A stretch of DNA of 62,758 nt, the filler included, from Asterionella formosa (lineage: Eukaryota): assembly GCA_002256025.1 (NCBI GenBank). It is 12 parts of 12 records of this genome, joined end to end, with 100 filler letters (N's around TTAATTAATTAA, not from the genome) between each part and the next. Parts side by side here need not be neighbours in the genome. Positions count along the whole stretch, not along the records: positions 20,976 to 26,115 come from NKIB01013203.1; 11 more parts are not named here. The stretch is one strand, 5' to 3'. A program made the translations under genes and the position numbers. The notes beneath the pieces were generated by a model that was not told the DNA's origin, ran no database searches, and saw nothing but the letters and a program-made list of their open reading frames with translations. Below, piece by piece: positions 3,392-62,758 of the stretch (position 1 is the stretch's first letter; each line of letters opens with the position of its first letter).

Positions 3392-4682
<1,291 letters not shown>

Positions 4683-5146
4683 GGTGGAAACAGGGTACCT
4701 GATTTCAAATGAGAATGTGTGGGAGGGGGGCACAAGAGGATCTTTGTGGTCTGCTATTATGATGATATCACTTGCTCGTTCCAAATACCGTACAGTACTG
4801 GTATCTGGTACAGTAGACTACTTATCATAATTTTTTACATTCTTGAGAAGAAAGTCAGCGATCGACAGGATTTACGTACAGGTGCCGGTACTAATATACC
4901 GCCCTCACATGCACTTGCGGTATGACATCATCATCCACCGAATTCTTCCTCCTTGTTCGCCACTGGTGACTTTACTCCTGATTCCTATTTGACTCGTGAC
5001 CACATAGCTTAATGTACTATCGCAATGACGTCAGAGGAATGCGATCTATTACATTGCAAAGAATCCGAACCATCGCTCCACACCACACACATCCAAGCAA
5101 CGGCTCTATCTTTGTGACGTCATACACATATATAGCATACGGTATA

Positions 5147-5246
5147 NNNNNNNNNNNNNNNNNNNNNNNNNNNNNNNNNNNNNNNNNNNNTTAATTAATT
5201 AANNNNNNNNNNNNNNNNNNNNNNNNNNNNNNNNNNNNNNNNNNNN
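5147..5246. other. Artificial contig spacer N44-TTAATTAATTAA-N44 (first of 11; the others start at 10392, 15636, 20876, 26116, 31356, 36596, 41834, 47071, 52305, 57533)
   Basis: Identical 100-bp spacer with a six-frame stop 12-mer; the flanking contigs decrease in length. Confidence 0.98.
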
Positions 5247-5986
5247 CAGTGCATCCAGCTCTGGCGCAATTTCTTCATCAGTGACTTCTTTATATCATCT
5301 CTGTCTTCTTTGTTGTTCTTGTCAATGTTTAGCACATGGCCATTCTTGTATTCATCTTCTTGCACTGTAATAGCACTCACTGTCATGAAAAAGGGGTTAA
5401 ACTTATTCTTTTTCTTTGTTCGTCTTGCTTAGCTCAAAAGCCATTTATACCGGTAACCTGGTAGAGCACCTGGTAAACCTTTTCTATAAAATTATATTTG
5501 CTTGTGGATACGGAGTACACCTGTCAAATAGACAAAGATAAATTATGATATATATAGTATATATATATACCGGTATACCGGTATTTATTTTCCGCGGCCC
5601 GCTTTGAAGCAAGCAATATTACCGGTACTCTGCCACAAACAAGACTACCTGGTACCTTTTCCTGGATTGATTGCGTTCTTCGATATATTCTATAAACTTT
5701 GATTTGCCTGTGATATCGATGAAACACATGAAGAAGAAACTGCACATCATTCAGTAGCGGTGGCATAGTCGTGATTTCGTTCCTTGTCACATTCTTTGAA
5801 TGTGCTTGGACCCTCAAGGGAAAGCGCAAAGGTGACAATGATCCGCCTTGAGAGAGACAAAGACTAAACACGGCTTCGAATAGAAATGCTCACTTTTTCT
5901 AATCACAAAAAGGATTTCTACATTGATGTCTTACATCTCGCCATTTTTGCCACCTCTCGCACTGAACAGAACAAATCCTGATCCAT

Positions 5987-16572: not shown

Positions 16573-19500
16573 CTCTCCCTGATCTCTGGTCCAACAGTCC
16601 AGTGTACTGTTTGAGATATTAGACGCATGTAGATCGTGGATTCTGGCTATGACATTCTTTGACAGAAGATCTGATGGATTCTTCTCCGTGTTGACATATT
16701 GAACTCTTATGCCTCCACATTCAACTTTCTCGCGTATAAAGTGATGTCTCACATCAATGTGTTTCGTTCGTCCTCCGGCTTGCTTGTTCTTCGATAGGAA
16801 AATTGCGTCAGTATCATCTGCTGATATAATGCTTGGTAGTTCAACAGTAGCGATTTCGTTTAAAAGATGTGCAGTGAACTTAGTTTCCTTTGCTCCATCT
16901 CTGACATTGACACATATTCAGCCTCAGCGCTTGACAATGTCACAATTGTCTGCCCTTTTGATATCCAATTAACTAGTGCAGTACCGCCAACGGTTCCCAA
17001 ATAGGCACTCGTTGATTTTCTTGTGTCAGGATTATCGCCGAAAGAGCTGTCAACGACATCTTGTACACATAGTTCCTTTGGTGGTCTCAACTTCAATCTT
17101 CGATTTTCGGGTTTAGCACAAATATACCCAAGTATTCTTTCTACTGTGTTCCAGTGCTCATCACTTGGATTATCCAAATGTTGTGACAATTCTCGGCATG
17201 CATTGGAACAAACAGGACCAATCTTTTTAACGTAGTTTAGTAGCTTGCCTACCATAGATCGGTACTCTTTATGCTTCACTGGATTCCCAGTTGACAATCT
17301 CAACATAGTACTGGGGAAAGCCGGAGTTAATGCATCTTTTGGAAAATGTCCAAAGATATCTTTGAAATCGTCTTTCATGCCTTGGACAAAACTTTCCATA
17401 CTACTCTCTAAGTAGCGTCCTGTAGAATCCTCTCCCCTTTGTACCACACGCCCAGGTGTTTCTTCAATTGTCCAAGTTCTTTAATTGTGAAATATTTCTT
17501 TATCTCCTTCCTGAACCACTCTACATCACTAGGCTTTCCGGCCACTGCGTAGTCGTCAACGTGTGAGGCAATTAGTAAGACTAATTTCCCATTCCATTTC
17601 AAATAGAAAATACATGCTTCCACTTGACATTGAGTCAGACCAACTAATTTCAAAATTTCAACAAGTTTCTTAAAAAACTGCAAAGCTCACTGAAATGTCC
17701 CATGTATCGCTTTTTTGAGCAAGATGCAATAATTTTCGGTGTCGGCTTTTGTTTCATAGCCAAGCTCTTCTATTCCTTCTGGCCAGCCAATATAGATTGC
17801 TTCGTCCATATCACCTTCTGGGAATGCCGCTTCCACATCAACAATTTTGCAAATCCATCGTTCGTTAACATCCTTGCTGTGATTATAGAGTGTGATTGCA
17901 AAAACTGTTCTTGTTGTTGTATCTGTTGCAACTGGGGCAAATGACTCCGTGAAGTCGACGCCAGGGATTTGTACATATCCCTTCACAACAATTCCTCCTT
18001 TATAGAAATGGATGGATAAGTCTTGTTCAGAATTCTTCTTAAACAACCATCGACTGCCTAGCATCTTGCGTTCATTGAGCATTTTCCTTGGAAATTTCTC
18101 CCACACTTTGCGTTTGTAGAAATTGTTAATTTCCACTTTAATTGCCTCGATCCACTTATCACGTTCAGGATCAGTCATTGCTTGTTTGTACCCTTTTGGT
18201 TCTCCAGGATCAGATGCTAATGATGTTGAATATATCCAATGTATTCCAACGACTCTGTCAATTTCACTGACCATTGTTGTAAGAACCTTGTCGTGTTGTT
18301 TTGGTGGTGGTGCCATCATAATCAGTGCTCTTCTAGCATTTATCATGGGGATCTGTGTCCATCCATCCAATTTCCTCATTTCTCGTTGCAATTTTACGGA
18401 ATACATCTATTCATGGTAAGTGAAAATAGAATGGAACTGCATGTTGTTGCATAAAAATAATATGACTAACATGTATTTGCTTCGCAGTTGTTACAACATT
18501 CATTAACATGAATACTAATAATGAAGGAAAGCTCTGATACGGAGAAGAAGGGAATGAGGAGAGGCAACCCGCCGCTATCAGCAACATCAGTTCATCCTTC
18601 GGAATCAGACAAGTACAAGGGAAAGGATGAAGTGGGCAGTTACAGTTGTGTCAGAAACGGGGTAGCAGGGAAGAAGCAGACAAGAGAATGAACAGGAGTG
18701 AGACGGTGTGAGATAACGGTTTCTATAGAAAGATTGAAACAATTCTAAATTTAGTAGTTAAATTACAATCCGTTTCCACATATTTTGGACAAATACTTCA
18801 TAGAGATACGATGGTAATAATATGGCTAAAAGATGAACAAATACACAATAAAGGATGTAGTTAAGGTAAATCGATGATGGTCTTGTAAGTACAATTAGTA
18901 ATTCATGGTCATGAGAAGGGCGATTGAAATTCAAAGAGAAGTAATGATTTCGACTTGAGTTGTTGTTACTCATTTACTGTATTTGTATGATTACTTTGTG
19001 GTTATCATTATGAGTCAATATGGATCAATATTAGAACAATATGATCAAATATTATAAGTATAAACATGCTTATCAAATATTCATATATAAAGTATGTACC
19101 TGTAACACAAATAACAAACGCGGTATGATACCCCTGATCTTATATGTACGATACTTTTGTTTGCAGACGTTTGGAAGCACTATCTGTATTCTCTCTCCCT
19201 GCTTCAGGGTTGTCAGCAAAATGCACATGAGGTTTTAAGGGGGGGGGGGTTTGTTGTAGCCAGGGTACTAGCTCAAACACTGGTAGCTAGGGGTACCACA
19301 ATTGCTGGGGGTAGTTTGACATTTTCCATGATGTCATATACAGTCGTATTTGTTGTGATATTGGACTTTCCATGCCACTCTCCCCACTTAATGTTCCTAG
19401 TATTGATCACTTTCTTGGTGTCTGGTCAGTACACTCTATATGTGTCCCCTGCATGGTTGTCAGAGTACCCAATCATTATACACTTAGTTGCTTTAGCCTC

Positions 19501-20568
19501 AAGTTTAGGTCTTTTTCCTGGTATTTTTACCCAACCAATTCTTCCAAATTCAACAAGATTATCATATATCTCGGGACACTTCCCATAGAAAATCCAATCT
19601 GGGCTTTTCTGCATGTTGTTTGTATTGTATACACTATTTGTGAGGCGTGTGTGTGTGTTGATACTTTCTGCCCATAAGAGTCCTTGTGACTCATCAGAAA
19701 ATCCTTCAACATTGCAGTGACGCTTCTGTCTCTAATAGTCACAAATTTGCGTTCCACCATACCGTTTTGCTGTGGGGTGTGTGGAGCAGTAAATTCGATA
19801 GTGATATTAAGCCTGTCACACATTGCAGAAAGTCCCTTGATATTTTCCCCAGCATTGTCACATGCATCGCAGGTACCAAATGATGTAGTTGGCATTGCGT
19901 AATTTAAGCAATAGTGGTTCCACTGTAGCCGCCATCTGCGACTTTTTCTTGACAAAGAAACTCCAGGATTTTCCACTTCATTCATCAACGACCAAAGTCC
20001 AGTAAGTACTCCCAACAATATTCTTCTTGTAAGGGCCACTTATATCTGCACCTAAACGCTCACCTGCCATAGTCGCTTTGTTAGTTGCACCTTTAGGTAC
20101 AGCCTTTGATTTTGCTTTAGCCAAAGCACATCCCTCACATGGCTGTTGGACTCCACTGGTCTCAATACCAATCGACTTCAATGTAGCACGCAGAGCTGCC
20201 TCGCTAGTGTGCCCGAATTTGTCATGTGCAACATTGATGTCCATACTTTTCTTAGGTGTAGGCTTAATAGGGTTGCCAGTCATTGGCGCAGCGTCCTCTT
20301 TGTTGTCCTCTGTGGACAATGCTGTTTCGTTGCCGTGCTTTTTAGTACCATGCATATAGTAGAGCACACCGTTGGCCTTGCTCTTGAAAGTTAGTCCGTC
20401 ATGCTCCCCTTCCTTGCGTAGGGTCATCTTGTCCTTGAGAATACCAACCTCGAAACTGCCATTACGCACAAGCATACCGACACTTAGTGTATTCTTGTGG
20501 AAGGTAGGTGTATAGTACAGGACCTTCTTCAGGAGTAGGACCTTCTGTGTAGCAGTATCAGTGAGGAG
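16570..20568 (-). mobile_element. Degenerate Ty1/copia retrotransposon pol (pre-integrase, integrase, RT, RNase H) with frameshifts and stops
   Basis: KKVLY.PTFHKN.LSVG; H.KFGH..CEGC; DNAGEN..TAPHTPQQNGMVER; GYVQIPGVDFTESFAPV; HVDD; TRKSTS..LSSAEAEY; RHHFIREKV..NPSDLLSKN. Order IN-RT-RH. PPT AGGGAGAG at 16580-16573 is followed by TGACA. Confidence 0.93.
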
Positions 20569-20834
20569 TGTTGAAATTGCGTCCCGAAGCACTCTATGCT
20601 TTCTTGTACCCTGTAAGGACAAGTCAGGGACCAAATAGGCTGTAGATATAACAACGATGTCTCCGTGATCGATTGTAATCGTTCCTAAGAGTTTTAATAG
20701 AATTATGGGTTTTTACTGTTGGCGTAGATTGTTTTCGAATTCTCTGGTACCATATTCTTTCTTGATTCATTCGATTCAATATGTAGTAGGTAATTTATAC
20801 CGGGATTTTCTTTCCTAAAATATTTTCTCCAACA
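20569..20834 (-). mobile_element. 266-bp LTR (TGTTGG...TTTCAACA) of a second LTR retrotransposon nested in the copia pol
   Basis: TGTTG/CAACA termini, preceded by a PPT-like CAGCAGGAGTG. Copia coding homology resumes at 20568. The first 95 bp are identical to 31261-31355 (+). Confidence 0.7.
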
Positions 20835-21249
20835 CACTCCTGCTGGACACGGATGCTCACTTTGAATTCATAATTNNNNNNNNNNNNNNNNNNNNNNNNN
20901 NNNNNNNNNNNNNNNNNNNTTAATTAATTAANNNNNNNNNNNNNNNNNNNNNNNNNNNNNNNNNNNNNNNNNNNNTGCTCGTCATCATTGCCTGCTTGGT
21001 TGTTGTTGTTGGTTCCTATGACAGCAACATTTTCGGCAATTAAATTCGGGTTGTTGTTGGCATTTGTTATGCCAAAAGCAAAATTAGAAACACTGCCCCC
21101 CCCTGAGCATTTGTCATGCTGGCATCTGCCAGGAAAATCGATTCAAGCTTGTCTGCTTCGTCTCTTGCCCATTCCTTTGCTCACAACAGTGTTGGTAAGG
21201 ATGATGGCAATCTGGGTCGCCTTCTTGCTTGTGATGGTTTCCCTTGTCT

Positions 21250-21579
21250 GTGGTGCCACTGTGCATAATAGCATTCCAAGCGGAGAGTCGATTTGGCATA
21301 AAATACGACAATGCCTTTTTGTAGTATTCCAGGGAAGAAGACTGGCCATGTGTTGGATTGTCATCATTGTTTGGATCCTCAGGACAGCCATACAATTTCA
21401 TAGCCATCCATTTGTAGACATCCTCAGGTGTAACTTCCCCAAGTTCCTCTTGACTAAACTTGTAGCTTTGAGAATATTCTATGCCATGCATCTCTGTATG
21501 ACATCATAGCAATAAGGACACTCTTGTAGACAGGGGATTGTGTAGTTTCATTTACTCTTCTTGTTGACATTGTCGCCAT
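21250..21579 (-). pseudogene. Crypton-like tyrosine-recombinase N-terminal fragment, frameshifted and truncated
   Basis: YKSVLIAMMSYRD/..FSQEELGEVTPEDVYKWMAMKLYG..P..DNPTHGQSSSLEYYKKALSYFMPN..W resembles, from memory, the N-terminus of stramenopile Crypton proteins. The catalytic domain is absent. Confidence 0.55.
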
Positions 21580-22900
21580 CTTGATATTTAGTTCAATTAT
21601 TAACATCAATCCCATTTCATACCATGTTGTTTTGTGATAGAATTTCTTGGACAATACCATAGCATACTGCAGGGTTCCACTGTTCTGTTGGTAGAATATT
21701 CTACCAAAATGTCAAAAAAATTCTACATTCAGTACTACTGGGTAGAATTTTTGCCTTTCTCCATACCATATTTTCACCACCACGGTCAAGCAAGGAGGGG
21801 GTATTACTAGATGTACTACTAGTATAGTACAAGCTAGTACCGCTCAGGAAAAAATATGTTTCTTCCTGTTTGTGATCAAAATCTCATCGATTCATACATT
21901 CTCGCATATGTTTTACTCGATGCCACCAGTCGAACAAACGATTGAGGTAATGAGTAGATATTGGCAGGACGCGCAGATGTTGGATATATATGGAAATAAC
22001 ATCCTCTGCAAATGCATTGTTTCATAGATACGAAATTAGTTATGATTTACTAACAGCTAGGTATATGTGTTACGGTTAGATCTCTTCCATTTCTCCTTCA
22101 CACTGCATCATATTTCTCCTTCACACTACTACCCGTAGAAAGGTAATGTTCATAAGGTAGATGAACGTTTTCTTCTCTTGCAGCAGCATGTCTTCTGTTC
22201 GGCTCCTCAGTATGGTAAGCTCGTTCCCTTTTATTGAAAGCAGAGAAATTGCCCGATGTCTCAACATAGCACTCAATGAAATATTTCTTGAATCTTTTTT
22301 TATCAATTCGCTTATACTCGGGAATGTCACTGTCATGGAGATCCTCCATGGTCACCTGGTAGAATGCTTTATAGTTGTTGTTTGCCTTTAACATCTCTTG
22401 GTGTTCTTTGGGAACTGTCAGGTAAGCCATTCCTTGGCGCTTACAATTCATGAAACATTCCATGTTCAACGATGATTTCTAATTAACTTGCACCTGGTTC
22501 AAAGTAGTGGGTGTTTTAGCCGAACTTTTTGCCTTTTTATAAGCTTTTAATAGAACTTCCTGACTTTCCATTCAGTTCATTTTCAGATGGTGTCACATTT
22601 CCTTCCATTGTTGGTAGCAAGGCCACATTGGAGAACCGTTGGAAAGAACCATCAACACGAATTGGATTTATTTATGGGGTGCTGATTCTTTCAGTTGCTG
22701 GTGAAGTGCCCAAAAGATCACTACTTGAAGAGGCTGTGGGATGGATACTAGCGGTACTTGGATTTTTTGCCTTCCCCAGGTCGTTTTGCACCCTAATCAC
22801 TGGTGGCATATAAGCAAGAATTTACCCGCATTAGAATTGCTTGTGATTACAATAGTGTTAGCTAGTAAATGAGAATAATACTAATATTAATAATAACAAT

Positions 22901-24403
22901 TCATTTCTTACCTCCCATTTTAGTCACATTTGTATCCTTCTTTTGCATATTCATGAACATGGACTCCAAAGCAATGCTGTTTGTAGACTCACGTAGTTGC
23001 TCGACTTGATCATAAATTGTATTGAACCTTGCTTGCATATCCCTTTGTTTCCCACCCTCCATACCGTTTGTTGCCAACTCCTCCATGGTTTGTATAGTGG
23101 CACTTCAGCAAAACACCTGAACCATCATCACTGCCAGCAATTTCATTACCAGTATCCCCAGTTGTATACTAGCTCTGGGTCCATACATCCCAACTATTTT
23201 CTAAGACGAGCAAGGCATATGCTTCATCCGATACAGTCATGATGGAGGCCATATTTTTTTGTGTTTTTGGCTAGCATAATTACCATACGTCATTACCCGA
23301 GAAAAATGCACTTCTCTAGAATAATGAAGGGATGCTCTTCAGGGAATGGCTTATGGTATTTGGTTGAGCACGTTGCCTTCTTTGATCTGAGGTTGTGAGG
23401 TTCGATTCCTGCAATTTTTTTGAGAAGCAACGATTGTTGCTTGGGTTTGACTCCCACACTCCTTACCGTCCTGCACGGTCTTGCCTGGTGTGCAAGAAAT
23501 AGTGGATTGCCCCCTTACAAGCAGCTTGTGCCGCCTTCCCCAGGCGGTCGGAGTTTCCCCTAACGCTGCGGCTAAGACAATCATCTTTCGTGAAGGGTGG
23601 TTGGGGACTCACCTACGCTAACAAAACTAGGGAAGCACAGGTCTTGTCGGCAGGCAGCACAATGAATACTTGCCTTGAAAAGGGGAGTAGGAATGGGATG
23701 TGAAACAGATTATCATTTTTGAAGGGATGCTCTTCAACTTTACCAACATCTGGTGGTTCTGTCCTGGACTGAACAATCTTATTCCGGGAAAGGAACTGTA
23801 ACTTTCAATAGTACTCAACCATTCCTGTTTTTATAATTAAGTATTGTTTTGAAAAGGAAGCCAACAGCAAGCACGACACCTCATTTTGAACTTACATTTG
23901 AAACCCTTTCTGATTGATGTTGAAACAGCATTCCTTTTTTCAGACAAAATTTTGTTGATGTCACACTTATATGTGAACCAAAATGATTCAAACTCTTCGT
24001 CAGTACCATTTCTGAGTGATGGGAAATGATTACGAAGAGCACCAGCAATGCTTTTGGGTTCCCTAATTTCCAAATCATAATCACCTGTGACAAATTTAAC
24101 TTTTGGAAACAATTCCTCTCTGACCCACCAGCTAGCCAGAAGGTGTGTCCAATGTTTGCACTGGCCAATTCCACCTACTACTCCAATTGTTATACTGTTG
24201 TTTTCAGCTGCTAATTCACGTAGGCGCTTGATTTCCTGTGTACTCCCAGACAATAGAATTTGGAGTTTATCTCTCTCTTGTTCAGCCGTCAACCTCCTCC
24301 CATCTCCTTTGACACTCTCTTCCGCTTCATTATCCTCCTCAAGTTGATAATCATCATATCCATCCGATGCAGGATTGTCTGGTATGGAATCTGTATCAGA
24401 CAA
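22901..24403 (-). pseudogene. Decayed hypothetical gene of a likely multicopy diatom family, interrupted by a SINE
   Basis: Exon 1 has WVREELFPKVKFV; GT-AG intron at 23895-23825. Beyond the SINE it reads TVSDEAYALLVLENSWDVW..YT..KRYGGW..RFNTIYDQV, with stops and frameshifts. Confidence 0.5.
23342..23719 (+). mobile_element. tRNA-derived SINE, family 1, copy A (378 bp, perfect 17-bp TSD)
   Basis: TSD TGAAGGGATGCTCTTCA at 23325-23341 and 23720-23736. A-box-like TGGCTTATGG; B-box GGTTCGATTCC at 23399-23409. Ends CATTTT. Second copy at 33777. Confidence 0.85.
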
Positions 24404-27400
24404 TGATGCAGAATAGGAATTTTCTCCACTGGAGTGGCAGCTGCTGGAAGGCGACGCACAAATGCGTAGCTATTGCGACCTGACGCACTCTGTCAGCAGT
24501 TTATCTGGTAATCTGTTAGGTAGGTAGCCTTGTAGGTGTGGCTCAAAAACGGCCCATAGTAGTGGCTGTGCTTGGCAGCGTCAATGGTACTTCACGTGGT
24601 AACTGCAGAAGAATACCTACCTATTTGGAACGCACAACAGTTCTTTCCAAAAGCCAATCATAAAAGAATAACTGTAATAACACTAAAATTGACGATGAAA
24701 ATTAAAGTCGCCGATGGCGCCATTTTTATGTAGCTAATTTAGAAATGCACAATTGAAGATGACAATCTTTCTAAGGAATTCGACACTTTCACAGTAGCTG
24801 AAAAATGAATAATACTACGGCTATGACAATAGCATGATGAGCGAGTTGAAGCTAAAGATGTGAAAATCGATCTTTATCAAGTGAGAATTGATTTATTGAT
24901 TGTACCGGCAGTATGTGTAGTCGTTAATGCAGGTATCAGTGCCGACAAAGCAATGTATTATTCTTTGGCAGTTGATACCCAAAAAAAATTTGAAAGCAGA
25001 AAAAATAATAAAGAATCGATATTGGGGACGAATTCATGGGAATTCACATGCATTGTCTTCAATCCTCACGCTTGTACACGCGGGACAAAAGTATAGAGCA
25101 GTACGGTAATTTGTACTAGACTAGTAGAAATTGCCTAATAAGAGTAGACAAAGCTATATCTGAGTATGGGAGAAACGAAGCTTTAGCTTAGTACTCGCCA
25201 GTATCAAAGGTAGGCTAAATTTCTAGTCGCGCCTTTGAGGCTCGAAAACTCGTCCATGTAATAATGCGGACAAGCAATGTGTTCGAGTGTAGTGAGGACT
25301 CAATGCTGGGTGATGGTACGGTGTATGCGTACGAGCCCTGGTAGCTGTCCCAAGTAAGCGTAGCGTGATGGTTGGCGGCTTGATGATCGTTTGTGTGAGA
25401 GGGGTACTATGGTGTGGTTTACTATGGGTAAATTGTTAATTTTTCCGCAGGGTTTGCGCAACAGGAGTACCGGTATCTGCTGTACACCCACTCCCCTTCG
25501 ACCTCCGTGATGGCCGTTGACACATGTGTGTACGGAATCTGATGGATATTGTGGTTATATTTTGTCTAGCGCGTTGTATGCTATGCATATGGTGACCGGT
25601 ATTGTGTCTCAATCGATGAGTAGCCACATGTATGAGGCATTTGTGTGCATCGGTGATAGATGCCGGTACCTGGTACCTGGTAGTATATAAAATATTATAT
25701 ATATAGACAAGCTTTTTGTCGGAATCGGTATACCGGTACCAGGTAATCTGTGTACAAGGTACTGTATAATAACATTTGTAATATACCCGCCACCCGGGAT
25801 GTGAGTCCGGCAGATGGAGTGGTATGCCTATACTATACTGGTTGTTTGTAGGCTGCAGCGCCGGAATATTTGTCCGGTCGGTGATGCAATGGTTTTACGA
25901 GTTCATGTGGATTTTGAAAAACGCGATGTCGGCGTTCGTTGGTTTTGTTGTTGTTTTGATGAAATGAAAGGGCGTCGTTGAATAAGGTTTATAGCGGAAC
26001 GGTACGTCGTCGTGGAGGTGGAGCGTACTGAGCAAATAAACGCGATTTCAATGGGCTGGTGTTGCCTATATTTTTACACTGACTACATGCGTTGCCTTTG
26101 TTCAGGTGGGTAAAGNNNNNNNNNNNNNNNNNNNNNNNNNNNNNNNNNNNNNNNNNNNNTTAATTAATTAANNNNNNNNNNNNNNNNNNNNNNNNNNNNN
26201 NNNNNNNNNNNNNNNAATGGTAATTCAGATCGAAAATTTTTGGCTTGCTAAGATTTAACTTGCTACAAATAGTTCAAAAAGTGCAAATTTACTGTTTTGA
26301 TTTGCTTGGCAATTAGGTCATCATGAAATACAAGACAACTTGTATGATCAAGCAGGACCTGGATTGTTATGTTTTGAGTTGTCTTGTTGGAGAAAATCTA
26401 TGGTCATAATGAAGTAGAAGCCAACACGCGAAAACTAATTTGGGGTTACAACTACCTGACAGATTATGTAAACAATCAATTCTACTTGAGTTGAGCCTTC
26501 CATCATCATGATGAAGAAGAATTCACGTGGAAAGAGAAATTCAATTTGGAGCCAGTGAGCATTCAATCGAAAACAAACATATCGGTCAGGTTTGTGTTGA
26601 CTCGTTCGAAAAGTGCATACATTCTGTTTGTTGTAAAGGATAATCTGTCATTATATGAAGAAAACTAGTGATGATTGATATGGAATGCAAAAATCGATTC
26701 GGGTCTGCTGAGAGTTGAACCAAATAGAATAATTAGGTTTGCGTCGACTATTTGGAAATTAGCTTCGTTGTGTTGGATGATCAAGGGTCATATCATAAGG
26801 GATAATAATTCATATTGAAAGTTAGACTCGGTTTGGGTCTGCTGAGAGTTCAACTCAATGAAACAATATAATCTTTTGTCGAATAATTAAAACTGCAAAT
26901 AATGTGTTGTTTTGAGCACAATGAAAGACTTGCCTACAAATAGGGGATTACAAATGGGCTGTAAAACATACTATCCTTTTTGATTTGTAGGATACTGTCA
27001 TCGTCATGACGAAGTTTATTAGTTCATGAACATTGAGATAGTATGATGGTGGTCCACTGACAGCCAGTTCAACTCGAGAAATGTAATACAATTTGAGTTG
27101 TATCCACTTGTTAAAATGAAAACAAGCATAGCTGGTATTGAGTTGTTGATTCTATAATCATAACATAGGATATTGACAGATGTGGAGAATGAAAATATAT
27201 TTAGGCTTGCTGACAGGTTCATTAAAAATAAAATTCTAATTGAGTGGAGTTTGTTCGAAGAAGGGATCGTTGGAACGATAAGCTGTCAAACATTAAACAT
27301 GGTACTGCTGAGTATAGCCAAATTTTGTGGGCATGATAGAGGGATGGGAAATATTTGTGACAAAAGGAAAATTTACTACGCAAATCTAGAATGAAAAGAA

Positions 27401-31814: not shown

Positions 31815-32945
31815 ATGCATTTGCGTGTGATAGTGATATAAATACTGGATGCGAAAATTCTTAAAAATAATTTTGCGAAAACCAAACGGGGTAATCCGTG
31901 ATCATAATGGTATATAAAATTATATACAATTATAGATAAAAATTTAAGTACTGCTGTGACCCATTACCGGCAAATTTTGTCCACATAAAAGGGTTCGTAT
32001 CTCAGTACCTCGACCTTCAATGAGAATACCGACAGATCCACAACCTGCTGACTCCTTTGGTTAACAAGACCTGGAAGTTTGATTCTCGCAAGGCATGGAA
32101 AAGGTTTAGTCGAACTAATCAAACGAATAGGAGAACTCAGTGGGTCACAGCAGTTCTTTACTGGTACTGTACATTCAACGCCGTTCTTGGAAGGTCTACC
32201 CGGTATTTCCAGGTGCCTCGACCTCCTCGTCGTATTTTTCATGGAACAACATACCAGGTTTCTACGCAAGAAGCCTCGTCATTTACACATTCCGGCTGCA
32301 CTGCCTTCACCAACCCATCAATACTGTGATTTGCTCCCTCCCCCACTCTATACCCAGAAAAGCTGAGATCATGTATATTCATGCCTGGCAAGTTGCGTTC
32401 CCATCATCCACTTACTGCTGCCACATTGTCATCATAAATGATTGATAGCACAAGCTGGCTGCTTTGCTCATTTGAAAATGAGAGCTTGCATTGCAATGAT
32501 GATGTTTCTTGGATACATTCCTTTTTGTTTCCATCAGGCCACTATTCCCAAATTTCTGGCAATACATTATTCATCATCATGTGTGCATGCTTTTGTTGTG
32601 TTGTTGCAGCTGAATTTGTCATTATAATCATCCCTGTTGGCCCATTGATCAAGTTTTCAAGCACCAGAGTTAAATGAATGGAGGTATCTCAGGAGGTCCA
32701 GAGCCCAAGCTTGCCATCGATAATAGGCTCTTCATGCACCATTATGGTCATGCCTTTCTGACCAAGCAACAGCAGATAAAATCAGAACTTTCACACTGTG
32801 GTCCTTGCCATTCAAAATTTTTTTCATCCAGCAAAATACTACTAGCCATTAGTCAAATAACATCCTTGTTTAGGTTTGAAAACAACAACAAAAATTATCA
32901 TCCACTTGAATCTATCAATGATGATTCTACCCCGGGTGGATCATG

Positions 32946-33177
32946 GGGGAATGACTTAGTGGTTAGCACACCCCTGTAGTGGCGGGTTTGATTCCTGCAT
33001 TCTCCACCTGTCTTTTTCATATAGTCCCTAGGGTTCCGGGGGTGCGGCTGATGAAAAGACAGGTCCCGTTGTACAGTACAGACGAATAAAACCGGTACTA
33101 ATTGTGTCCATCTATTTGGTGGGCCCAAGTGCAATTATTGGATAGCTTTAATGTACCAAAAAATTTTAATTTGACAT
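32946..33177 (+). mobile_element. tRNA-Ala-derived SINE, family 2 (about 232 bp, ~20-bp TSD)
   Basis: Acceptor stem GGGGAAT/ATTCTCC-A with G3:U70; A-box TGACTTAGTGG; T-arm GCGGG-TTTGATT-CCTGC. TSD at 32926-32945 and 33178-33197 (17/20, all differences C/T). Confidence 0.8.
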
Positions 33178-33776
33178 TTTATCCTGGGTGGATCATGTGT
33201 AAATGGTGACTAAAACAATATAGGAACTATTTGTCATCCATCCTTTGCTTGTCAGATTCAATATTACACCATCCTTCCCCTGTGCTCGTATCATATCCTG
33301 TCTACTGTCCTTAGCAATTAAAAACCGTGGACATTGGCAGAGAAGCAGGTGCTGGCTGATAGCAGAAGAAGATGATGTGTGGTGTGCTTCATAGACGAAA
33401 TCATGTTCTCGTCATTGTATTTTAGAGGCTACCTAGGCGTATCTTTTTGAAAACAATGCAAAAGATTCAATAACATGAGTTGAGATCGCTATTACATATA
33501 CCTGGTGGTATCATAGTATCTTTATTCTTGCCAAATCTGCATGACAGAAAATTGAAGAGTAACGTAAGGCAAAAAACAGACCTAGCTATCATCTGCCTGT
33601 TTCATCATCAGAAAATGAAAACATCTTATTTGAGTGATGCATCTTAGTCTATGATGAAAATCATGTGATCATAAAAATTCAATATGTTATCTTATATGTA
33701 TGATATTTTTTCCCATACATTAAATATAACACTTTTTCGATTATGCAAAATACAATATTACATGTATCGTTTTCAA

Positions 33777-34067
33777 GGGAATAACTTATGGTAGTTGGTT
33801 GAGCATGTTGCATTTGATCTGAAGTTGTGTGGATCAATTTCCGTAATTTTTTTAGAAGCAATTGTTGGATTCGACTTCAACACTCACACACACACAAGCA
33901 GCTTGTGTCGCCATACAGTCGGAGTTTCCCCTAACGCTGCTGCTAAGACAATGACTTACATACGCTAACAAAACTAGGGAAGCACAGGTCTTTTTGGCAG
34001 GCAGCACAATGAATACTTCCCATGAAAAAGGGGAGTAGGTATGGGATATAAAAAGATTTAGCATTTT
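33777..34067 (+). mobile_element. tRNA-derived SINE, family 1, copy B (diverged, internally shorter)
   Basis: Colinear with 23342-23719 from GGGAAT..CTTATGGTA.TTGGTTGAGCA through GTCGGAGTTTCCCCTAACGCTGC and TACGCTAACAAAACTAGGGAAGCACAGGTCTT to CATTTT. No clear TSD. Confidence 0.8.
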
Positions 34068-43592: not shown

Positions 43593-43730
43593 AAAGAAGT
43601 ATCTGAAAAGAAACGGCGCTTCCTTTACTCCTGAATCATCAACAAGGTTGTCTCGTCGCCTAAAGAAGTATCTGAAAAGAAAAGGCTCTCCCTTTACTTC
43701 TGAATCATCAACAAGGAAGTCTCCTCTCCT
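43593..43730 (+). repeat. 69-bp tandem duplication inside the Harbinger element
   Basis: AAAGAAGTATCTGAAAAGAAA..CCTTTACT.CTGAATCATCAACAAGG at 43593 and 43662. Confidence 0.85.
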
Positions 43731-50399: not shown

Positions 50400-51404
50400 A
50401 ATGCGAATGTTCCACCTTGATTGTTCCATCACACAGACGGCCTCAAACACCACTTTGTGTTTGTCGACCCCATGACGAAACCTTTCATCAAGAATTCTAA
50501 ACTTCTTAATACGGCCGTTGAACGTTTCATGGCGAGCAAGAGCTCGTTTTTAAATGCCTTCACCGCTGTAGTGTCTATTGCATTGCGGACACTAATTGAA
50601 GGCTCACCTCTGTATCCTTCATCCCCAACAACCCTTTTCCCAGCCGGAATTTTGCTCTTGAGGCCTCCTTCTTCACGGAAGATTGTGACGTCGTGTGTCC
50701 CAGCAGGAAATGGACCATTAATCCATACTAGCTGGTTTCTGAAAATCGAAATACCAAGTTCATAAGCCAATCCAGGCTTGTTGTACTTCTTGGAGTACCA
50801 TCAAGCGCTAGGGTGGTTCCTAGGCTCATTGATGAGACAGTGTGTTCCATCAACAGAGATAATAAAGATTTCCTCGCTATTATTATCAGCTGCATGGAAG
50901 TCCCAAATAATCTAGAAGAGTCAAAACAAACAAAAAACCATTGTAAGTATGTGTTAAAGTACCTTTTGATAGTTGTCAATGTCCATGTTTTTCACTTACC
51001 TTTTCCGCCTTAAGCGCTTGTATTGCAAGTGCATACTCCCAAATACGCTTATGTATGGTCTTCACCACCATGTTGTAGGATCCGGCCAATTCCTCTTCAG
51101 TCTTATAAGTACTCAACCAATCCATTGTGATCAAGAAGAAAAGAGGGTCGGGCTTGTTCACTCGATCTGCACCAATATGATCCATTGACTCCAATGCAGA
51201 AAATATCTTTATACAACTCTGTGGACTGAGACCAAAGAATGAACGAAATCGTCGAAGTTTCGTTGCATCGCAAGTTCTTTCATTCCTATTCTCATCAAAT
51301 CCTGCATGAAGAAGGCCCAGATCAAGAAAATCGGAAGCAGAGAGAGGGAGCATGGTGTGTTGGAAGGAAAGGACAGGCGATTTTGTTTGGTTCAATTTGT
51401 TCAT
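50400..51404 (-). pseudogene. DDE_Tnp_4-type (PIF/Harbinger-ISL2EU-like) transposase pseudogene with one intron (50999-50912)
   Basis: RRFRSFFG; after the intron FIISVDGTHC.INEP..*WYSKKYNKPGLAYELGISI..WINGPFPAG.HD..GDEGYRGEP../RHETFNGRIKKF.IL.ERFRH. One stop and one frameshift. Confidence 0.85.
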
Positions 51405-55959: not shown

Positions 55960-56131
55960 NNNNNNNNNNNNNNNNNNNNNNNNNNNNNNNNNNNNNNNNN
56001 NNNNNNNNNNNNNNNNNNNNNNNNNNNNNNNNNNNNNNNNNNNNNNNNNNNNNNNNNNNNNNNNNNNNNNNNNNNNNNNNNNNNNNNNNNNNNNNNNNNN
56101 NNNNNNNNNNNNNNNNNNNNNNNNNNNNNNN
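55960..56131. other. Intra-scaffold N gap (no linker)
   Basis: 172 N with no TTAATTAATTAA core. Confidence 0.9.
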
Positions 56132-56437: not shown

Positions 56438-57532
56438 CAGTGAAACCTCCCTATAAGATACACCCTGTTTACTCCTACATTTATGGCCTTTTCGTATCCT
56501 ATAGGGAGGTGTATCTTATAAGGAGGTTCAGCTAGTTTAGGCTGTTTTGTACTCCTTACTTACTACAGTACCAGGGTACATAATATGTACTAAACATTGA
56601 TTTTCATTTGGAAGAAGAAGAAAAAGATTCAATTGGAGGTTGAATAAGCCTAGAATGAGACCTTTTTTGAACAGCGGCAATTATTTCAAGCAATGGAAGT
56701 TCCTGCTCAAATAAATCTATTTCTGTCACATACATCAGTGCTGTTTTTAAACCAAGCAATGCATCTCTTGAGGTTATAGGAACCTTATTGGACACATCAC
56801 TGATTGCTGCCATAGCACTGCCTTCATCCAAGGCACTGTCATCCTCCTCATCCCCTTCATAAATATATTCAGCAACCAAATTTGCAATCAAAGGTTGAGC
56901 ACATGGGATTGCATATTCACCAAAACAATCTTGTACATAATGAATATCAACTTCTCCAAGCCTCTCCATCAGCTCCTCCACTTCATTTTCAGTTTCCTCT
57001 AGTACTGATACACATTCTTCATCACATACTTGTTTAAATCCACATGCTTTAAAGCATTTTTGAATTGTTTCAATCATGACACTTCCCCAGGATGTAGCCA
57101 TAAACTTCATTGCATCAATAACCTGCAATTTCTTAGCCAGATCTGCTGCATGTTCTCCTATTTCAATAAATTGTAATAACTGCAAAACTTGATGCTTACA
57201 AGAAAGAGCTTTCACACTTCTAATGATTCCAGCATCCAAAGGTTGCAACAAACTTGTTAAGTTTGGAGGGAAAGATTGAATCTTTACATGTGTTAGCCTT
57301 GAGCTTGTCTCCTCATCAACAATGTGGACAGGGGCGTTATCCAAGGAAAAAAGAATCGTCCTGTTCTGAGAAGCCATGTATGCATTCAAATCCAATAGAT
57401 ACTCATTAAAAATAGGATTTGTCATCCAAGCTTTGCTACTTGACTTGTACACAACTCCAAGGCGGATCAAATCAATGTTTCGAAAACAACGAGGCTTCTT
57501 GGATTTCCCAATTATGAGCGGTTGCAGCTTTT
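56438..57532 (-). mobile_element. pogo/Tigger (DDE_1) DNA transposon: 3' TIR plus transposase C-terminal part (56604-57532, 5'-partial)
   Basis: IGKSKKPRCF..KAWMT..LDNAPVH..FPPNLTSLLQPLDAGII. TA|CAGTGAAACCTCCCTATAAGATACACC TIR at 56438, with an inverted inner copy at about 56507-56532. Confidence 0.9.
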
Positions 57533-57632: not shown

Positions 57633-58359
57633 TATTTGACAAATCTCATTGATTTTAAAGCAAATTCCAACAGTCTCTTTGGTACACTTCCTACAGAGAT
57701 TGGATACCTGAGAGGTCTAACATCATTGTATGTACAGGAAAACCAGTTGACTGGTCCGCTTCCTTCAGAAATTGGCTTTTTGAAAAATATCATTGATTTT
57801 AGAGCAAATTCCAACCGTCTCTTTGGCACAGTTCCTACAGAGATTGGATTCTTGACAGGTCTAACAGTATTAGTTCTTTGGGAAAACCAGTTGACTGGTG
57901 CACTTCCGACAGAAATTGGCAATTTGAAAAATATGGCATTATTTGCTGCAAGCACAAACCATTTCAATGGAACACTTCCTTCAGAAATTGGATTCTTGAC
58001 AAGTCTTACATTATTGCATCTATTTAATAATCAGTTGACTGGTGCACTTCCAACGGAAATTGGCAATTTGACAAGTCTCAATAATTTTCAGATTCATTCC
58101 AATATGTTTACTGGTGCAATTCCCACAGAAATTGGTCTCATGTCATCATTGAGTAAGTTTAGTTTATCTGAAACTGACATTTCTTGACCATTTGTTCTAA
58201 AATTTCACTTTCTTGACAGCCACATTAAATTTTGGAAAGAACAATTTTACAGGGCCAGTTCCAACAGAAGCATGTAATATTGCAACAATAATTTTTTGCC
58301 CACCGCTGATTTGCAACTGTGGTAGCTACTGTTCCGCAATTAAGCTCGATTGTGATTAA
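57633..58359 (+). CDS. Leucine-rich repeat protein, C-terminal part (intron 58153-58219); 5'-partial
   Basis: 24-aa LRRs (N.LTG.LPTEIG.L..L). The spliced last exon gives NNFTGPVPTEAC..C..C.C..C..C*, a Cys-rich tail. Confidence 0.85.
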
Positions 58360-59375: not shown

Positions 59376-62300
59376 ATGGCTCAAGCTCCCAACGCCCATG
59401 CGGCTTTCGTCTTTGCTCTAACCCCAGCTCTCGCAAATCCTGATCCCGTTGATTACAACTCAAATGAAGGGATGAAATTGTACAAGTCTGCAACCGAAAA
59501 ACTCAATCATCCCTTCGATGGTGAAACTGGAGGCCTCCGCCTTTTCCTTCAAGCCTTGCAGCAACGAGCCGACGCATTTGGATGTGCCTCCATCCTCACG
59601 GTCCCTGATGACCACAACGTTGGGCGAAACCTAATCACCGAATATGTAAGGGTCATCATGGCAAATGTGGTTGCTCACGCAGCCACACATGTTCATTCCC
59701 AGACGTGTGACGCACAGAACTGTGCGCAGTTGTTTACGTGCATTTACGATTCACTTTCAATGGAGGCCTTGCTCAAGGTTTCTACAGACTCATCTGCCTA
59801 TCGTCTTACGTCACCTACAGCCCCTACACACATAGTGGCAAGTGGTGCTGCATTCTTGAAACTTCTCATTACGAGATGCACGGTCGATACACGATCCACG
59901 GTGGCTACCATTCGCCGTACCCTCAGCGTGTTGGATGAAAACATGTTATCGGTGGACTGCAACATTGAGAAGTTTAACCTCCATGTCCGTGTGCAACGTG
60001 ACGCACTTATGTCTCGTGGGGAAACTTCTTCTGACCTACTGACAAATCTGTTTACAGCATACGAGGCTGTGGAGGATAAAGTGTTCCATGATTACATGAT
60101 TGGTCAGCAGGATCAGTATCACGATGGACGGGTGGATTTTGATGTGGATTCGCTGATGGACCTGGCCCTAAATAAATATAAATGGTGTGGGCGGTCCCAT
60201 CCCAGTGCTTCTCAAAGGCACGGTGAAGTGGCGCATAGAGGACAACCTGGGGTGTATTCACATTTTTCGTATTCCAGGAACTTATTTTGCCCCGGCGGCC
60301 CCCTTTAGAATGTTTTCTCCTCAACATTGGAGTCAGGAGACTAATAAGTGCCTTAAGCAAGGCCTTAAGGGAGCATGGTGCGCCACCTACGAGGACAGGG
60401 TAACTCTCCACTGGGGTAATGATAAATATGTGCGATCTATCTGGCTGGATCCAAGCACAAATGTGGCAACTGTACAGACTGCACCAGGGTGCACCAGATA
60501 TCAGATCTACGAGGCCATTATAGGATCAACGAAGGAACACAATAGATCTAAAATGTTTTAATGTTAACACTGTCACCGATGATGAATGCTCAGACCGTGA
60601 GGAGGATGTTAAGGTGCGATCTAAGCTTCCCTACAGTTTGAATGAAGATGAACCATCAATAATTGGGGGGCCAGAGAAGGGAGATGCCAGTGGAACACAT
60701 GATCCGTCCGTTAAGGGAGATGCCAGTGGAACACACATTCTTGAGTCTCACCTTGAAACAGTCTTTCATGACGCATCCGCCAAGCCAACTGAGACTGAAG
60801 ATCAGGATGCCCTGACGCCTACCACGGAATTGCTTCGTCTCCACTACCGGCTTGGCCATCTGCCCTTCAGCCAATTGCGGAGCATGGCTGCTACCGGATT
60901 TCTTCCCAAGAGACTCTTGCAGGCCCGCATTCCCAAATGCGCTGCCTGCATGTATGGAAAGGCGACTCGAAGGGCTTGGAGGTCAAAAGCACCACCAAGC
61001 AAGGTGGGGGGCGGAATGGCGACTTTCCCTGGACAGTGCGTCTCCGTGGACCAGATGCAGTCCCCTACACCAGGGCTGATTGGGCAACTCAAAGGAGTTC
61101 CCACCACTCAGCGATATATGGCCGCAACGATCTTTGTTGACCATTTCAGCCGCCTTTCATTTGTCCACTTGCAGCGATCGCTGACCTCGGATGACACCGT
61201 GAAGGCAAAAAGGGCCTTCGAGCGATACTGCGAGTCACACGGCGTGAAGGTGATGCACTACCATGCTGACAACGGTCGATTTGCGGACACGCTGTTCTTG
61301 CAGGACATTGCCGAGCAGCGCCAGAGAATTTCGTATTGTGGTGTCAACGCACATTTTCAAAATGGTGTGGCAGAGAAACGAATTAGGGACTTACAGGACT
61401 TGGCGCGTACTGCGTTATTGCACGCCACTGCCCGATGGCCACGAGTCATGTCAAATTGCCTGTGGCCATATGCACTGCGTACGGCTAATGATGCACTTAT
61501 TAGCGCTCCGCGTCGTGTGGACGGAAGGTCCGCCGCAAGCGTGTTTTCCCGGACTGACGTGTCCCCTAAGTTGGGGTCATTTCGCCCTTTTGGGTGCCCT
61601 ACGTACGTTCTGTCTAACGAGCTGGCTGCCAGGAAAAACATACCTAAGTGGTTAAAGAGAGCAAGGGTAGGCTTGTATCTAGGGCAGTCCCCACAGCATG
61701 CACAGTCCGTTGCTCTAGTGTTAAACATATCGACGGGGCTGGTGTCACCGCAATTTCATGTTGCGTTCGACGACCTCTTCGAAACCGTGGGAACCAAGGA
61801 GGACGTATATGAGATTGGCTCGCTCTCCGCCACGCATTTCTCCGAGAAGTCGTCCGGAGCCAAAGGATCACGAGGGCGCACCAAGCCGGTCGTCGTGGAC
61901 AGTTTAAGTCAAGAGATTTTCCCGCTCCCTCTCCTCCTCTCCCCACAGGGACCGCCACCCCTGGTTATTCCAGTCGTAAATGAGGATGGGGTCCCACATG
62001 AGGCTCTCCTGGAAACCGGGGCAGGACTCCCACTCCTTGCGTCACAGGAGTCCGCCTCTTCAGGAGTGCGTTGGTCACAACGACACAAGCCGTCACGCCG
62101 GTTACAAGAGAGTGTTGAACAGGGCCTGCTGTGCAAGGCATCGGCACTCGAGGATGTGGATGGGGATGAAGAGTATCACCTGCAGGTTATGATGGAAGAC
62201 CCAATTGCATTCGCAGCAAGATCATCCGATCCTGATACGTTACGCGCTGACCAGGCTCTAAGGGAGCCAGACAGAAAGCAGTTTATAGCCGCCATGGAAG

Positions 62301-62758
62301 CCGAGGTCATGGCGCATCACAATAATCAACATTGGAAGGTGATTCCGAAGTCAGCCGTGCCACTCGGAACCAAAATTCTGCCTTGTGTGTGGGCGATGAA
62401 GAGGAAACGCCGGATAGCCTCAAGGGAGGTGTAGAAGTGGAAGGCCAGGCTAAATCTGCATGGCGGGAAACAGGAACATGGGGTGAACTACTGAGAGACC
62501 TATGCGGCTACCCTGTCATGGCCACCCATCTGCTTTATGTTGGTCCTGTCCTTAATGCATGGATGGAGTACCCGGCAGATAGATTTTACACTTGCGTACC
62601 CGCAGGCCGACGTGGAATGCGACTTATATATGGAAATCCCGCATGGGTTCGAGCTACCGGAGGGGGGTCGAAATGGTCATTGTCTCAAGATTCTGAAGAA
62701 CATTTATGGTCAGAGACAGGCAGGTCGTACTTGGTCCTTGCATTTGACTAAGGGGCTA
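59376..62758 (+). mobile_element. CoDi-type Ty1/copia retrotransposon (gag, integrase, RT start), defective and 3'-truncated
   Basis: gag FALTPA..DY..G..Y..AT..L..FDG; integrase H.RLGH..CAAC, SVDQM, YHADNGRF, HFQNGVAEKRIRDLQ; RT VWAMKRKR..KARLNLHGGKQ.HGVNY with in-frame stops at about 62432 and 62492. Confidence 0.93.

Follow-up and report, generated by a model that had tools for sequence, protein, structure and literature searches.

In a stretch of 62,758 nucleotides from the Asterionella formosa assembly GCA_002256025.1 (the window), we found a 378-bp insert, copy A, that is probably (rough probability 0.7) a recent insertion of a transfer RNA (tRNA)-derived short interspersed nuclear element (SINE) moved by target-primed reverse transcription. 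Copy A is framed by an exact 17-bp duplication of its target, a version of the site lacking the insert is found in other contigs, the element recurs at loci with differing flanks, and its head is related to tRNA-like sequence. A preliminary description of the same DNA had interpreted the insert as a SINE mobilised by a long interspersed nuclear element (LINE); our analysis partly supports that interpretation, which was largely right but incomplete. The window is composed of 12 pieces of about 5.1 kb each, separated by paired 44-N runs around a 12-base spacer, with an extra N run at 55960-56131, and distances between pieces are meaningless. Copy A lies on the piece taken from NKIB01013203.1. 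Contigs from three DNA runs (X1, X2 and X6, the last being a freshwater metagenome) and one RNA-library run (X12, a metatranscriptome library) were aligned to this 5.1-kb piece at 80% likeness. Two relatives of copy A (copies B and C) and a member of a second SINE-like family (element D) lie on other pieces. The parts of copy A and of its target site are given below.

23325-23341, plus strand: left copy of the 17-bp target-site duplication; an exact 17-mer found elsewhere only at 23720-23736.
23342-23719, plus strand: copy A, full length, 378 bp; its limits are the limits of homology to copy B, its depth in X6 and X12 is 12-37 times that of the flanks, and it has no terminal inverted repeats.
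23342-23421, plus strand: tRNA-like unit 1, with a degenerate A box at 23347-23357, an exact B box at 23399-23409 and a run of seven T residues (T7) at 23415-23421.
23422-23461, plus strand: linker and second T-arm/acceptor-like fragment, with a B-box-like motif at 23444-23454; element D's T arm can be aligned to it.
23462-23655, plus strand: body of unknown origin, with two segments missing from copy B; it holds the core translated in 19 clusters of metagenome open reading frames (ORFs) and matches no Rfam family at E up to 10.
23656-23719, plus strand: 3' tail ending in CATTTT, common to copy C (blastn, 81% over 69 nt).
23720-23736, plus strand: right copy of the 17-bp duplication, an exact repeat; X6 and X12 contigs start here, and X2 contigs carry the empty-site junction.

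The 17-mer TGAAGGGATGCTCTTCA is present exactly twice in the window, once on each side of copy A. In a boundary-anchored search, none of 300 flank shuffles reached the 17/17 match, and the perfect duplication around a 378-bp insert claimed in the preliminary description is thereby borne out. The first and last bases of copy A, which begins with GGGAAT and ends with CATTTT, coincide with the limits of its homology to copy B on another piece. The empty site was recovered from run X2, in which contigs aligning rightwards from 23720 are preceded by 13 letters, 12 of which are identical to 23312-23324. These letters are the sequence just left of the first 17-mer, so the contigs represent an insert-free site that has one 17-mer only. 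To the right of the insert, the longest contigs of X6 (record 28) and X12 (record 12) also begin exactly at 23720. A reading of the insert as an introner with splice sites on the minus strand was dropped after inspection by eye, as no GT..AG frame matched the insert ends.

Within copy A, none of the three inverted pairs found sits at the ends, and long internal direct repeats are absent, the longest being 18 nt at 78% identity. An 18-nt stretch at 23580-23597 (ATCATCTTTCGTGAAGGG) resembles 23709-23726, that is, the 3' end together with the start of the duplication (ATTATCATTTTTGAAGGG), at 78% identity, either by chance or as microhomology between element and target. The preliminary description had also proposed a GC-rich hairpin body. 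Short palindromes exist in copy A, but the RNA fold of the whole element was no better than that of shuffled sequences (z -0.16), with 44 of 100 shuffles equally or more stable, and this part of the description did not hold.

The element is repeated far beyond the two loci from which it was first recognized. In X6, the summed contig depth, which is not a copy number, was 4277-5487 over 23384-23727 compared with 253-352 in the adjoining bins; in X12 the corresponding sums, likewise not to be read as copies, were 2435-2744 and 75-175. The excess of element over flanks in X2 was 4-9 fold. An indel at 23541, inside the element, was carried by 23 (X2), 17 (X6) and 15 (X12) distinct contigs, compared with only one contig in each of these runs for an indel at 23167 in the flank.

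Independent loci were also seen at the protein level. With the 66-aa open frame of 23503-23703 as the query in a protein collection, the element was found to be translated in 11 of 12 near-length candidates and in 8 of 19 longer ones, all of them ORFs predicted from ENA/JGI metagenome contigs (19 spurious ORF clusters). The alignment of these ORFs shows the common core LRLRQSPF.KGGWGLTYANKTREAQVL.AGSTM, and none of them has a Pfam domain. Judged by eye, the residues that follow the tail differ in at least 11 ORFs, and four further contexts differ before the translated GGGAATGG start; two ORF pairs share a flank and may represent the same locus. The differing flanks mean that both ends of the element recur beside unrelated sequence. 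Thus, the family is not confined to two copies, as the 19 ORF clusters and the 15-23 contigs at 23541 show, and copy A does not behave as a part of a longer element, two of the outcomes that would have spoken against the preliminary description. Nucleotide patterns gave less. One scan of metagenome contigs with a degenerate tail pattern returned a single match, to a GC-rich bacterial contig (L001), which we attribute to chance, and two body 20-mers and one head pattern gave zero or one chance match each (L002, L003) against viral and prokaryotic contigs, with likeness limited to 20-21 nt.

The region that received copy A (21000-24470) also exists in many variants or copies: X1 has 26-107 contigs at each position, and the X6 depth is 5-10 times that of 24416-26115. 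It contains minus-strand ORFs without a Pfam family and represents a repeated gene or a transposon of undefined kind, and contigs of about 94% identity are found in a metatranscriptome library. A 210-aa ORF at 23840-24469 has five metagenome homologues (best 89% identity, 71 member sequences).

Two further members of the family are present in the window, making two copies and one fragment in about 60 kb of sampled sequence.

33777-34067, plus strand: copy B, older and shorter, 291 bp; colinear with copy A, with an ARAGORN -ps80 match at 33778-33854.
26915-26981, plus strand: copy C, consisting of tail sequence alone and interpreted as a 5'-truncated insertion in a degenerate tandem repeat (period about 145 bp).

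Copies A and B are about 90% identical within the aligned blocks and 77% identical when gaps are counted, since two internal segments are missing from copy B. The colinear copy reported on another contig in the preliminary description is therefore real and lies on a separate piece of the N-joined window. The copies are thus short (<1 kb; 378 and 291 bp), lie on different pieces and recur in the 19 ORF clusters, in keeping with the short, interspersed and non-tandem character by which SINEs are defined. The last 65 nt or so of copy A recur at copy C (blastn, 81% identity over 69 nt, 26915-26983) with the same C.TTTT end, and copy C contains no head or body sequence and interrupts one unit of the tandem repeat. 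The repeat itself extends over 26500-27240 with a period of about 145 bp, with units near 26505, 26650, 26792 and 26999, one of them being broken by copy C. Copy C fits a 5'-truncated retrotransposed copy, and it could alternatively be a truncated partner LINE or belong to a different family that has this tail. By eye, a candidate degenerate duplication (7-10 nt) was noticed on the two sides of copy C relative to the repeat units, but it was unconvincing and was not retained.

The head of the family contains the internal promoter motifs expected of a tRNA-like unit. The B-box consensus is matched exactly by GGTTCGATTCC at 23399-23409 and with one mismatch by GGTTTGACTCC at 23444-23454, and both motifs had been correctly placed in the preliminary description. 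Such motifs alone are not rare, as 10 B-box matches with at most one mismatch were found in the window and 7.6 were expected. At the 5' end, the X1 loose-end consensus, which represents other copies, has the sequence GGGAATGGCTTAGTGG with an exact A box, TGGCTTAGTGG; by eye, copy A is one base short there. ARAGORN found no tRNA genes in the window at its default setting. At -ps85 it gave five matches, two of which are the heads of copy A (23353-23421) and element D (32938-33008), and at -ps80 it gave 22 matches, three of which are the heads of A, B and D. The label Ser(tga) that ARAGORN assigned to the parent tRNA was not accepted, because it depended on relaxed settings and because serine tRNAs have a long extra arm that is missing here.

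The case for a tRNA origin within copies A and B themselves is weak, and it is supported by the head of element D, a second SINE-like element found through the ARAGORN match at 32938-33008 on the same piece as copy B.

32946-33182, plus strand: element D, 237 bp, with a tRNA-like head; its 15-bp target-site duplication, with one mismatch, lies at 32931-32945 and 33183-33197.

Element D was found once in the window, between CCCGGGTGGATCATG and CCTGGGTGGATCATG, a match that none of 1000 shuffles reached. The Rfam tRNA model RF00005 aligns to its first 61 nt (32946-33006) over model positions 1-71, at 16.9 bits (gathering score 29) and E 0.55, and the match starts with the base that directly follows the duplication. 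This head has a perfect 7-bp acceptor stem and a shortened anticodon arm. Two of its segments align with the family of copy A: GGGAATGACTTAGTGGT with the start of copy B, at a score reached by 8 of 1000 shuffles, and GGTTTGATTCCTGCA with the first T arm of copy A, at a score reached by 1 of 1000. A likeness to the second B-box segment of copy A is also seen in the T arm of element D. On these alignments, the head of element D is judged to be homologous to the heads of A and B. The tRNA-like head of the preliminary description is thus only faintly visible in copy A, as a relaxed ARAGORN match, and it is supported by the homologous head of element D, which the tRNA model covers end to end at a score below its gathering score. 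The dimeric head needs a similar correction: two T-arm/B-box segments are present, but the second consists of a T-arm/acceptor fragment only. We therefore read the head as probably quasi-dimeric, that is, one tRNA-like unit (23342-23421) with a duplicated T-arm/acceptor fragment and not two full tRNA units.

The 3' end and the duplications point to the way in which the element may have moved. Copies A, B and C all end in CATTTT and have no poly-A, as the preliminary description had stated for the insert. Long, variable duplications with a precise empty site are expected of target-primed reverse transcription (about 7-20 bp), and copy A has 17 bp and element D 15 bp with one mismatch. The 17- and 15-bp duplications, the lack of inverted repeats and the tail-only copy together argue for target-primed reverse transcription by an element lacking long terminal repeats (a non-LTR element) with specific recognition of the 3' end. 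In the scheme that we infer, which includes the polymerase, the reverse-transcriptase partner and the truncation of copy C, the element would be a non-coding unit of about 290-380 bp whose head came from a tRNA or pre-tRNA with an acceptor stem, a D arm with the A box and a T arm with the B box. [quoted passage not shown] Target-primed reverse transcription at a staggered chromosomal nick would then insert a copy of the RNA, and the outcome would be duplications of 15-17 bp and occasional 5'-truncated copies such as copy C. RTE-type elements recognise a specific 3' end in this manner and have no poly-A, and their SINE partners share their 3' ends. RTE-like non-LTR elements have been reported in the Thalassiosira pseudonana and Phaeodactylum tricornutum genomes, according to the part of PMC2806351 available, and they would be a candidate partner class, linked to the present family by inference only.

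Several observations weigh against this interpretation. No LINE domain (RVT_1, endonuclease) was detected in the 60 of 83 stop-to-stop ORFs of at least 100 aa that were scanned, 23 being left unscanned; the mobile-element domains in the scanned set were limited to Copia-type reverse transcriptase and integrase and to DDE transposases. The eight longer element-carrying ORFs had no Pfam domain and were only read-through, with no LINE coding end joining the SINE body. A LINE sharing the 3' tail, which the preliminary description had suggested looking for, was accordingly absent from the scanned window ORFs and from these eight ORFs, and within the window the tail of copy A is common to copy C only. 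The claim of a LINE-mobilised SINE is supported in that the element is short, non-coding, dispersed and multi-copy, with a long duplication, an empty site and no inverted repeats, but a partner LINE was not found among the ORFs scanned. Copies B and C have no target-site duplication above chance (equalled by 118 and 102 of 300 shuffles, respectively), and the duplication is significant in only one of the three family copies of the window. The Rfam tRNA model matches neither copy A nor copy B at E up to 10, and the score of element D is lower than the gathering score of the model. Run X1 shows no copy contrast, the flanks being as multi-variant as the element (26-107 contigs per position). The excess of element over flanks is no larger in the RNA library than in DNA, and depth gives no sign of transcription.

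The chief point against plain SINE membership is the T7 run at 23415-23421, which forms the 3' acceptor strand and the trailer of tRNA-like unit 1. Runs of this length stop Pol III efficiently in those organisms that have been studied, and the production of a full-length Pol III transcript is therefore doubtful. The same run is found in copy B and in the loose-end consensus of X1, and by homology (translated ...IPAIFLRSN...) it is deduced in the eight ORFs that cover the site, one of which seems to have T5. Element D has an intact acceptor strand, ATTCTCC, at the equivalent place and a T5 run 7 nt beyond it. By eye, the T7 run looks like an acceptor strand decayed by C-to-T changes and fused with the T run of the pre-tRNA trailer. 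One speculative proposal, which we consider rather unlikely, is that both families keep the T run of their parent pre-tRNA between head and body, a reverse transcriptase having acquired each head, by template switching, as an entire Pol III primary transcript. Copies might then still act as Pol III units that end at the T run and give a tRNA-like RNA of about 80 nt, and a rarer full-length intermediate might arise by terminator read-through or from RNA polymerase II (Pol II). If true, SINEs with a terminator built into them would exist in a lineage from which such elements are essentially undescribed.

The same T run bears on an alternative in which the element is a tRNA-headed non-autonomous retroposon and not a strict SINE. 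The head and the T run would then be a pre-tRNA fossil, captured by a template switch of the reverse transcriptase from LINE-tail RNA, and full-length RNA would come from Pol II, from read-through transcription or from terminator read-through. The conservation of the T7 run in A, B and the X1 consensus is in line with such a fossil, as is the T5 run of element D, which lies 7 nt past the tRNA-like end, the usual place of a tRNA-gene terminator; the intact ATTCTCC of element D also suggests, by eye, that T7 is a decayed acceptor strand with its trailer. The duplication, the tail and the truncated copy fit this alternative and the SINE interpretation equally well. However, the head-body junction is identical in A, B, the X1 consensus and the spanning ORFs, which means that the family arose by the spread of master copies that already carried the fusion, in the manner of SINEs. 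Moreover, the A and B boxes have been kept at tRNA-like spacing, and Pol III of the host alga may need a different number of T residues to stop. We consider a fossil head of this kind unlikely.

The remaining alternatives concern other classes of element. Copy A could be a piece of something longer, such as a solo LTR, an element of the terminal-repeat retrotransposon in miniature (TRIM) type, an LTR element with a small-RNA head, or a segmental duplication. The host region 21000-24415 is itself multi-copy, Copia-type fragments occur elsewhere in the window, and tRNA-like sequences are reported from LTR elements of the non-autonomous kind (PMC10886601, in the part available). Nevertheless, the empty site shows that exactly 378 bp and one 17-mer were added, and the same two ends are found in copy B and, at the protein level, at loci with unrelated flanks. 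LTR-type integration produces duplications of 4-6 bp, and elements of this type are recognized by long terminal direct repeats or TG..CA ends. The 17-bp duplication, the lack of long internal direct repeats and the ends GGGAAT... and ...CATTTT do not agree with an LTR-type element, and an origin from a longer unit is very improbable. A miniature inverted-repeat transposable element (MITE), a non-autonomous DNA transposon moved by cut and paste, would likewise be short, non-coding and multi-copy with a flanking duplication. Such an element is scarcely credible here, since none of the inverted pairs is terminal, the tail-only copy C does not fit, and duplications of 17 bp, and 15 bp in the sister family, are too long and too variable. 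A duplication of 17 bp exceeds those of the known superfamilies of cut-and-paste DNA transposons and those of LTR elements.

Alu, B1 and Twin SINE contain a repeated head part and an A-rich linker. In the family described here, the second part is a T-arm/acceptor fragment without an A box and the linker is a T run, not A-rich. The likeness to these complex or quasi-dimeric elements, which are named in the part of PMC3531059 available, lies in the repetition of part of a head derived from a small RNA and in the homopolymer linker. The same source, SINEBase, gives a working definition of a SINE that asks for 100 copies per genome, a full-length Pol III transcript and at least 60% identity to tRNA, 5S or 7SL RNA over at least 60 nt and includes reverse transcription by a partner LINE, often via a common 3' region (PMC3531059, in part). 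As far as tRNA-derived SINEs (SINE2 type) are described there, the present family resembles them in its length of less than 700 bp, its head, body and tail modules, its body of unknown origin, its tRNA-related head, which begins with base 1 and contains A and B boxes, its long and variable duplications and its internally deleted copies. It differs from them in its CATTTT end without poly-A or a simple-repeat tail and in the T7 run between head unit 1 and the remainder.

SINEs in diatoms appear to be little characterized, as the preliminary description had noted, and our literature search returned pipeline labels only, within the parts of the sources available. In P. tricornutum, 13 "putative SINE" elements with a total of 1,454 bp are listed (PMC5859163, in part), and in Cyclotella cryptica SINEs appear as a RepeatModeler class (PMC7466962, in part). 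These labels and the present family are alike as SINE claims in chlorophyll-c algae. Compared by description only, and in the portions of those two papers available, the former are pipeline classes and counts with no head, duplication, empty site or family structure. Several SINE families are also known from a stramenopile of a different lineage, the oomycete Phytophthora infestans, in which infSINE comprises fifteen SINE families (Whisson et al. 2005, as cited in the available part of PMC5063351); this comparison, too, is by description only. The literature search returned no structural characterization of a SINE family from a diatom or haptophyte; Repbase and Dfam lay outside that search, and the family may be catalogued there.

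The remainder of the window is eukaryotic in character, with long, intron-poor ORFs that include a bromodomain/PHD protein, GAPDH, an NFACT protein and a chlorophyll-binding antenna protein. In atlas look-ups and a PDB sequence search, the antenna protein was of the chlorophyll a/c (red-lineage) type, and its closest atlas clusters were from haptophytes and diatoms. This marker does not tell the two groups apart, and the diatom assignment of the preliminary description is plausible. Other mobile sequences are present as fragments within 16573-20712, 60524-62431, 56604-57470 and 50432-50800, and comprise Copia-type reverse transcriptase, integrase and gag-pre-integrase domains as well as DDE_1 (pogo-like) and DDE_Tnp_4 (Harbinger-like) transposases. 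Tandem repeats of a 144-bp unit (three units) and a 69-bp unit (two units) lie within 57635-58066 and 43593-43730.

In summary, the family of copy A would appear, from its sequence features, to behave functionally like a tRNA-derived SINE with a specific tail other than poly-A. The argument is structural and draws on the tRNA-type head, the exactness of the empty site, the length of the duplications, a truncated copy and the head that two families have in common. SINEs were for long believed to be missing from most unicellular eukaryotes. The kind of mobile element is ordinary, and it is hardly described in chlorophyll-c algae, so the two families may serve annotators as a seed for masking and dating such elements in these algae and may provide insertion-polymorphism markers for a common freshwater alga. 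The conserved T run is a testable oddity with respect to Pol III termination or the origins of SINEs, and the family as a whole points to an active non-LTR reverse transcriptase in the same genome.

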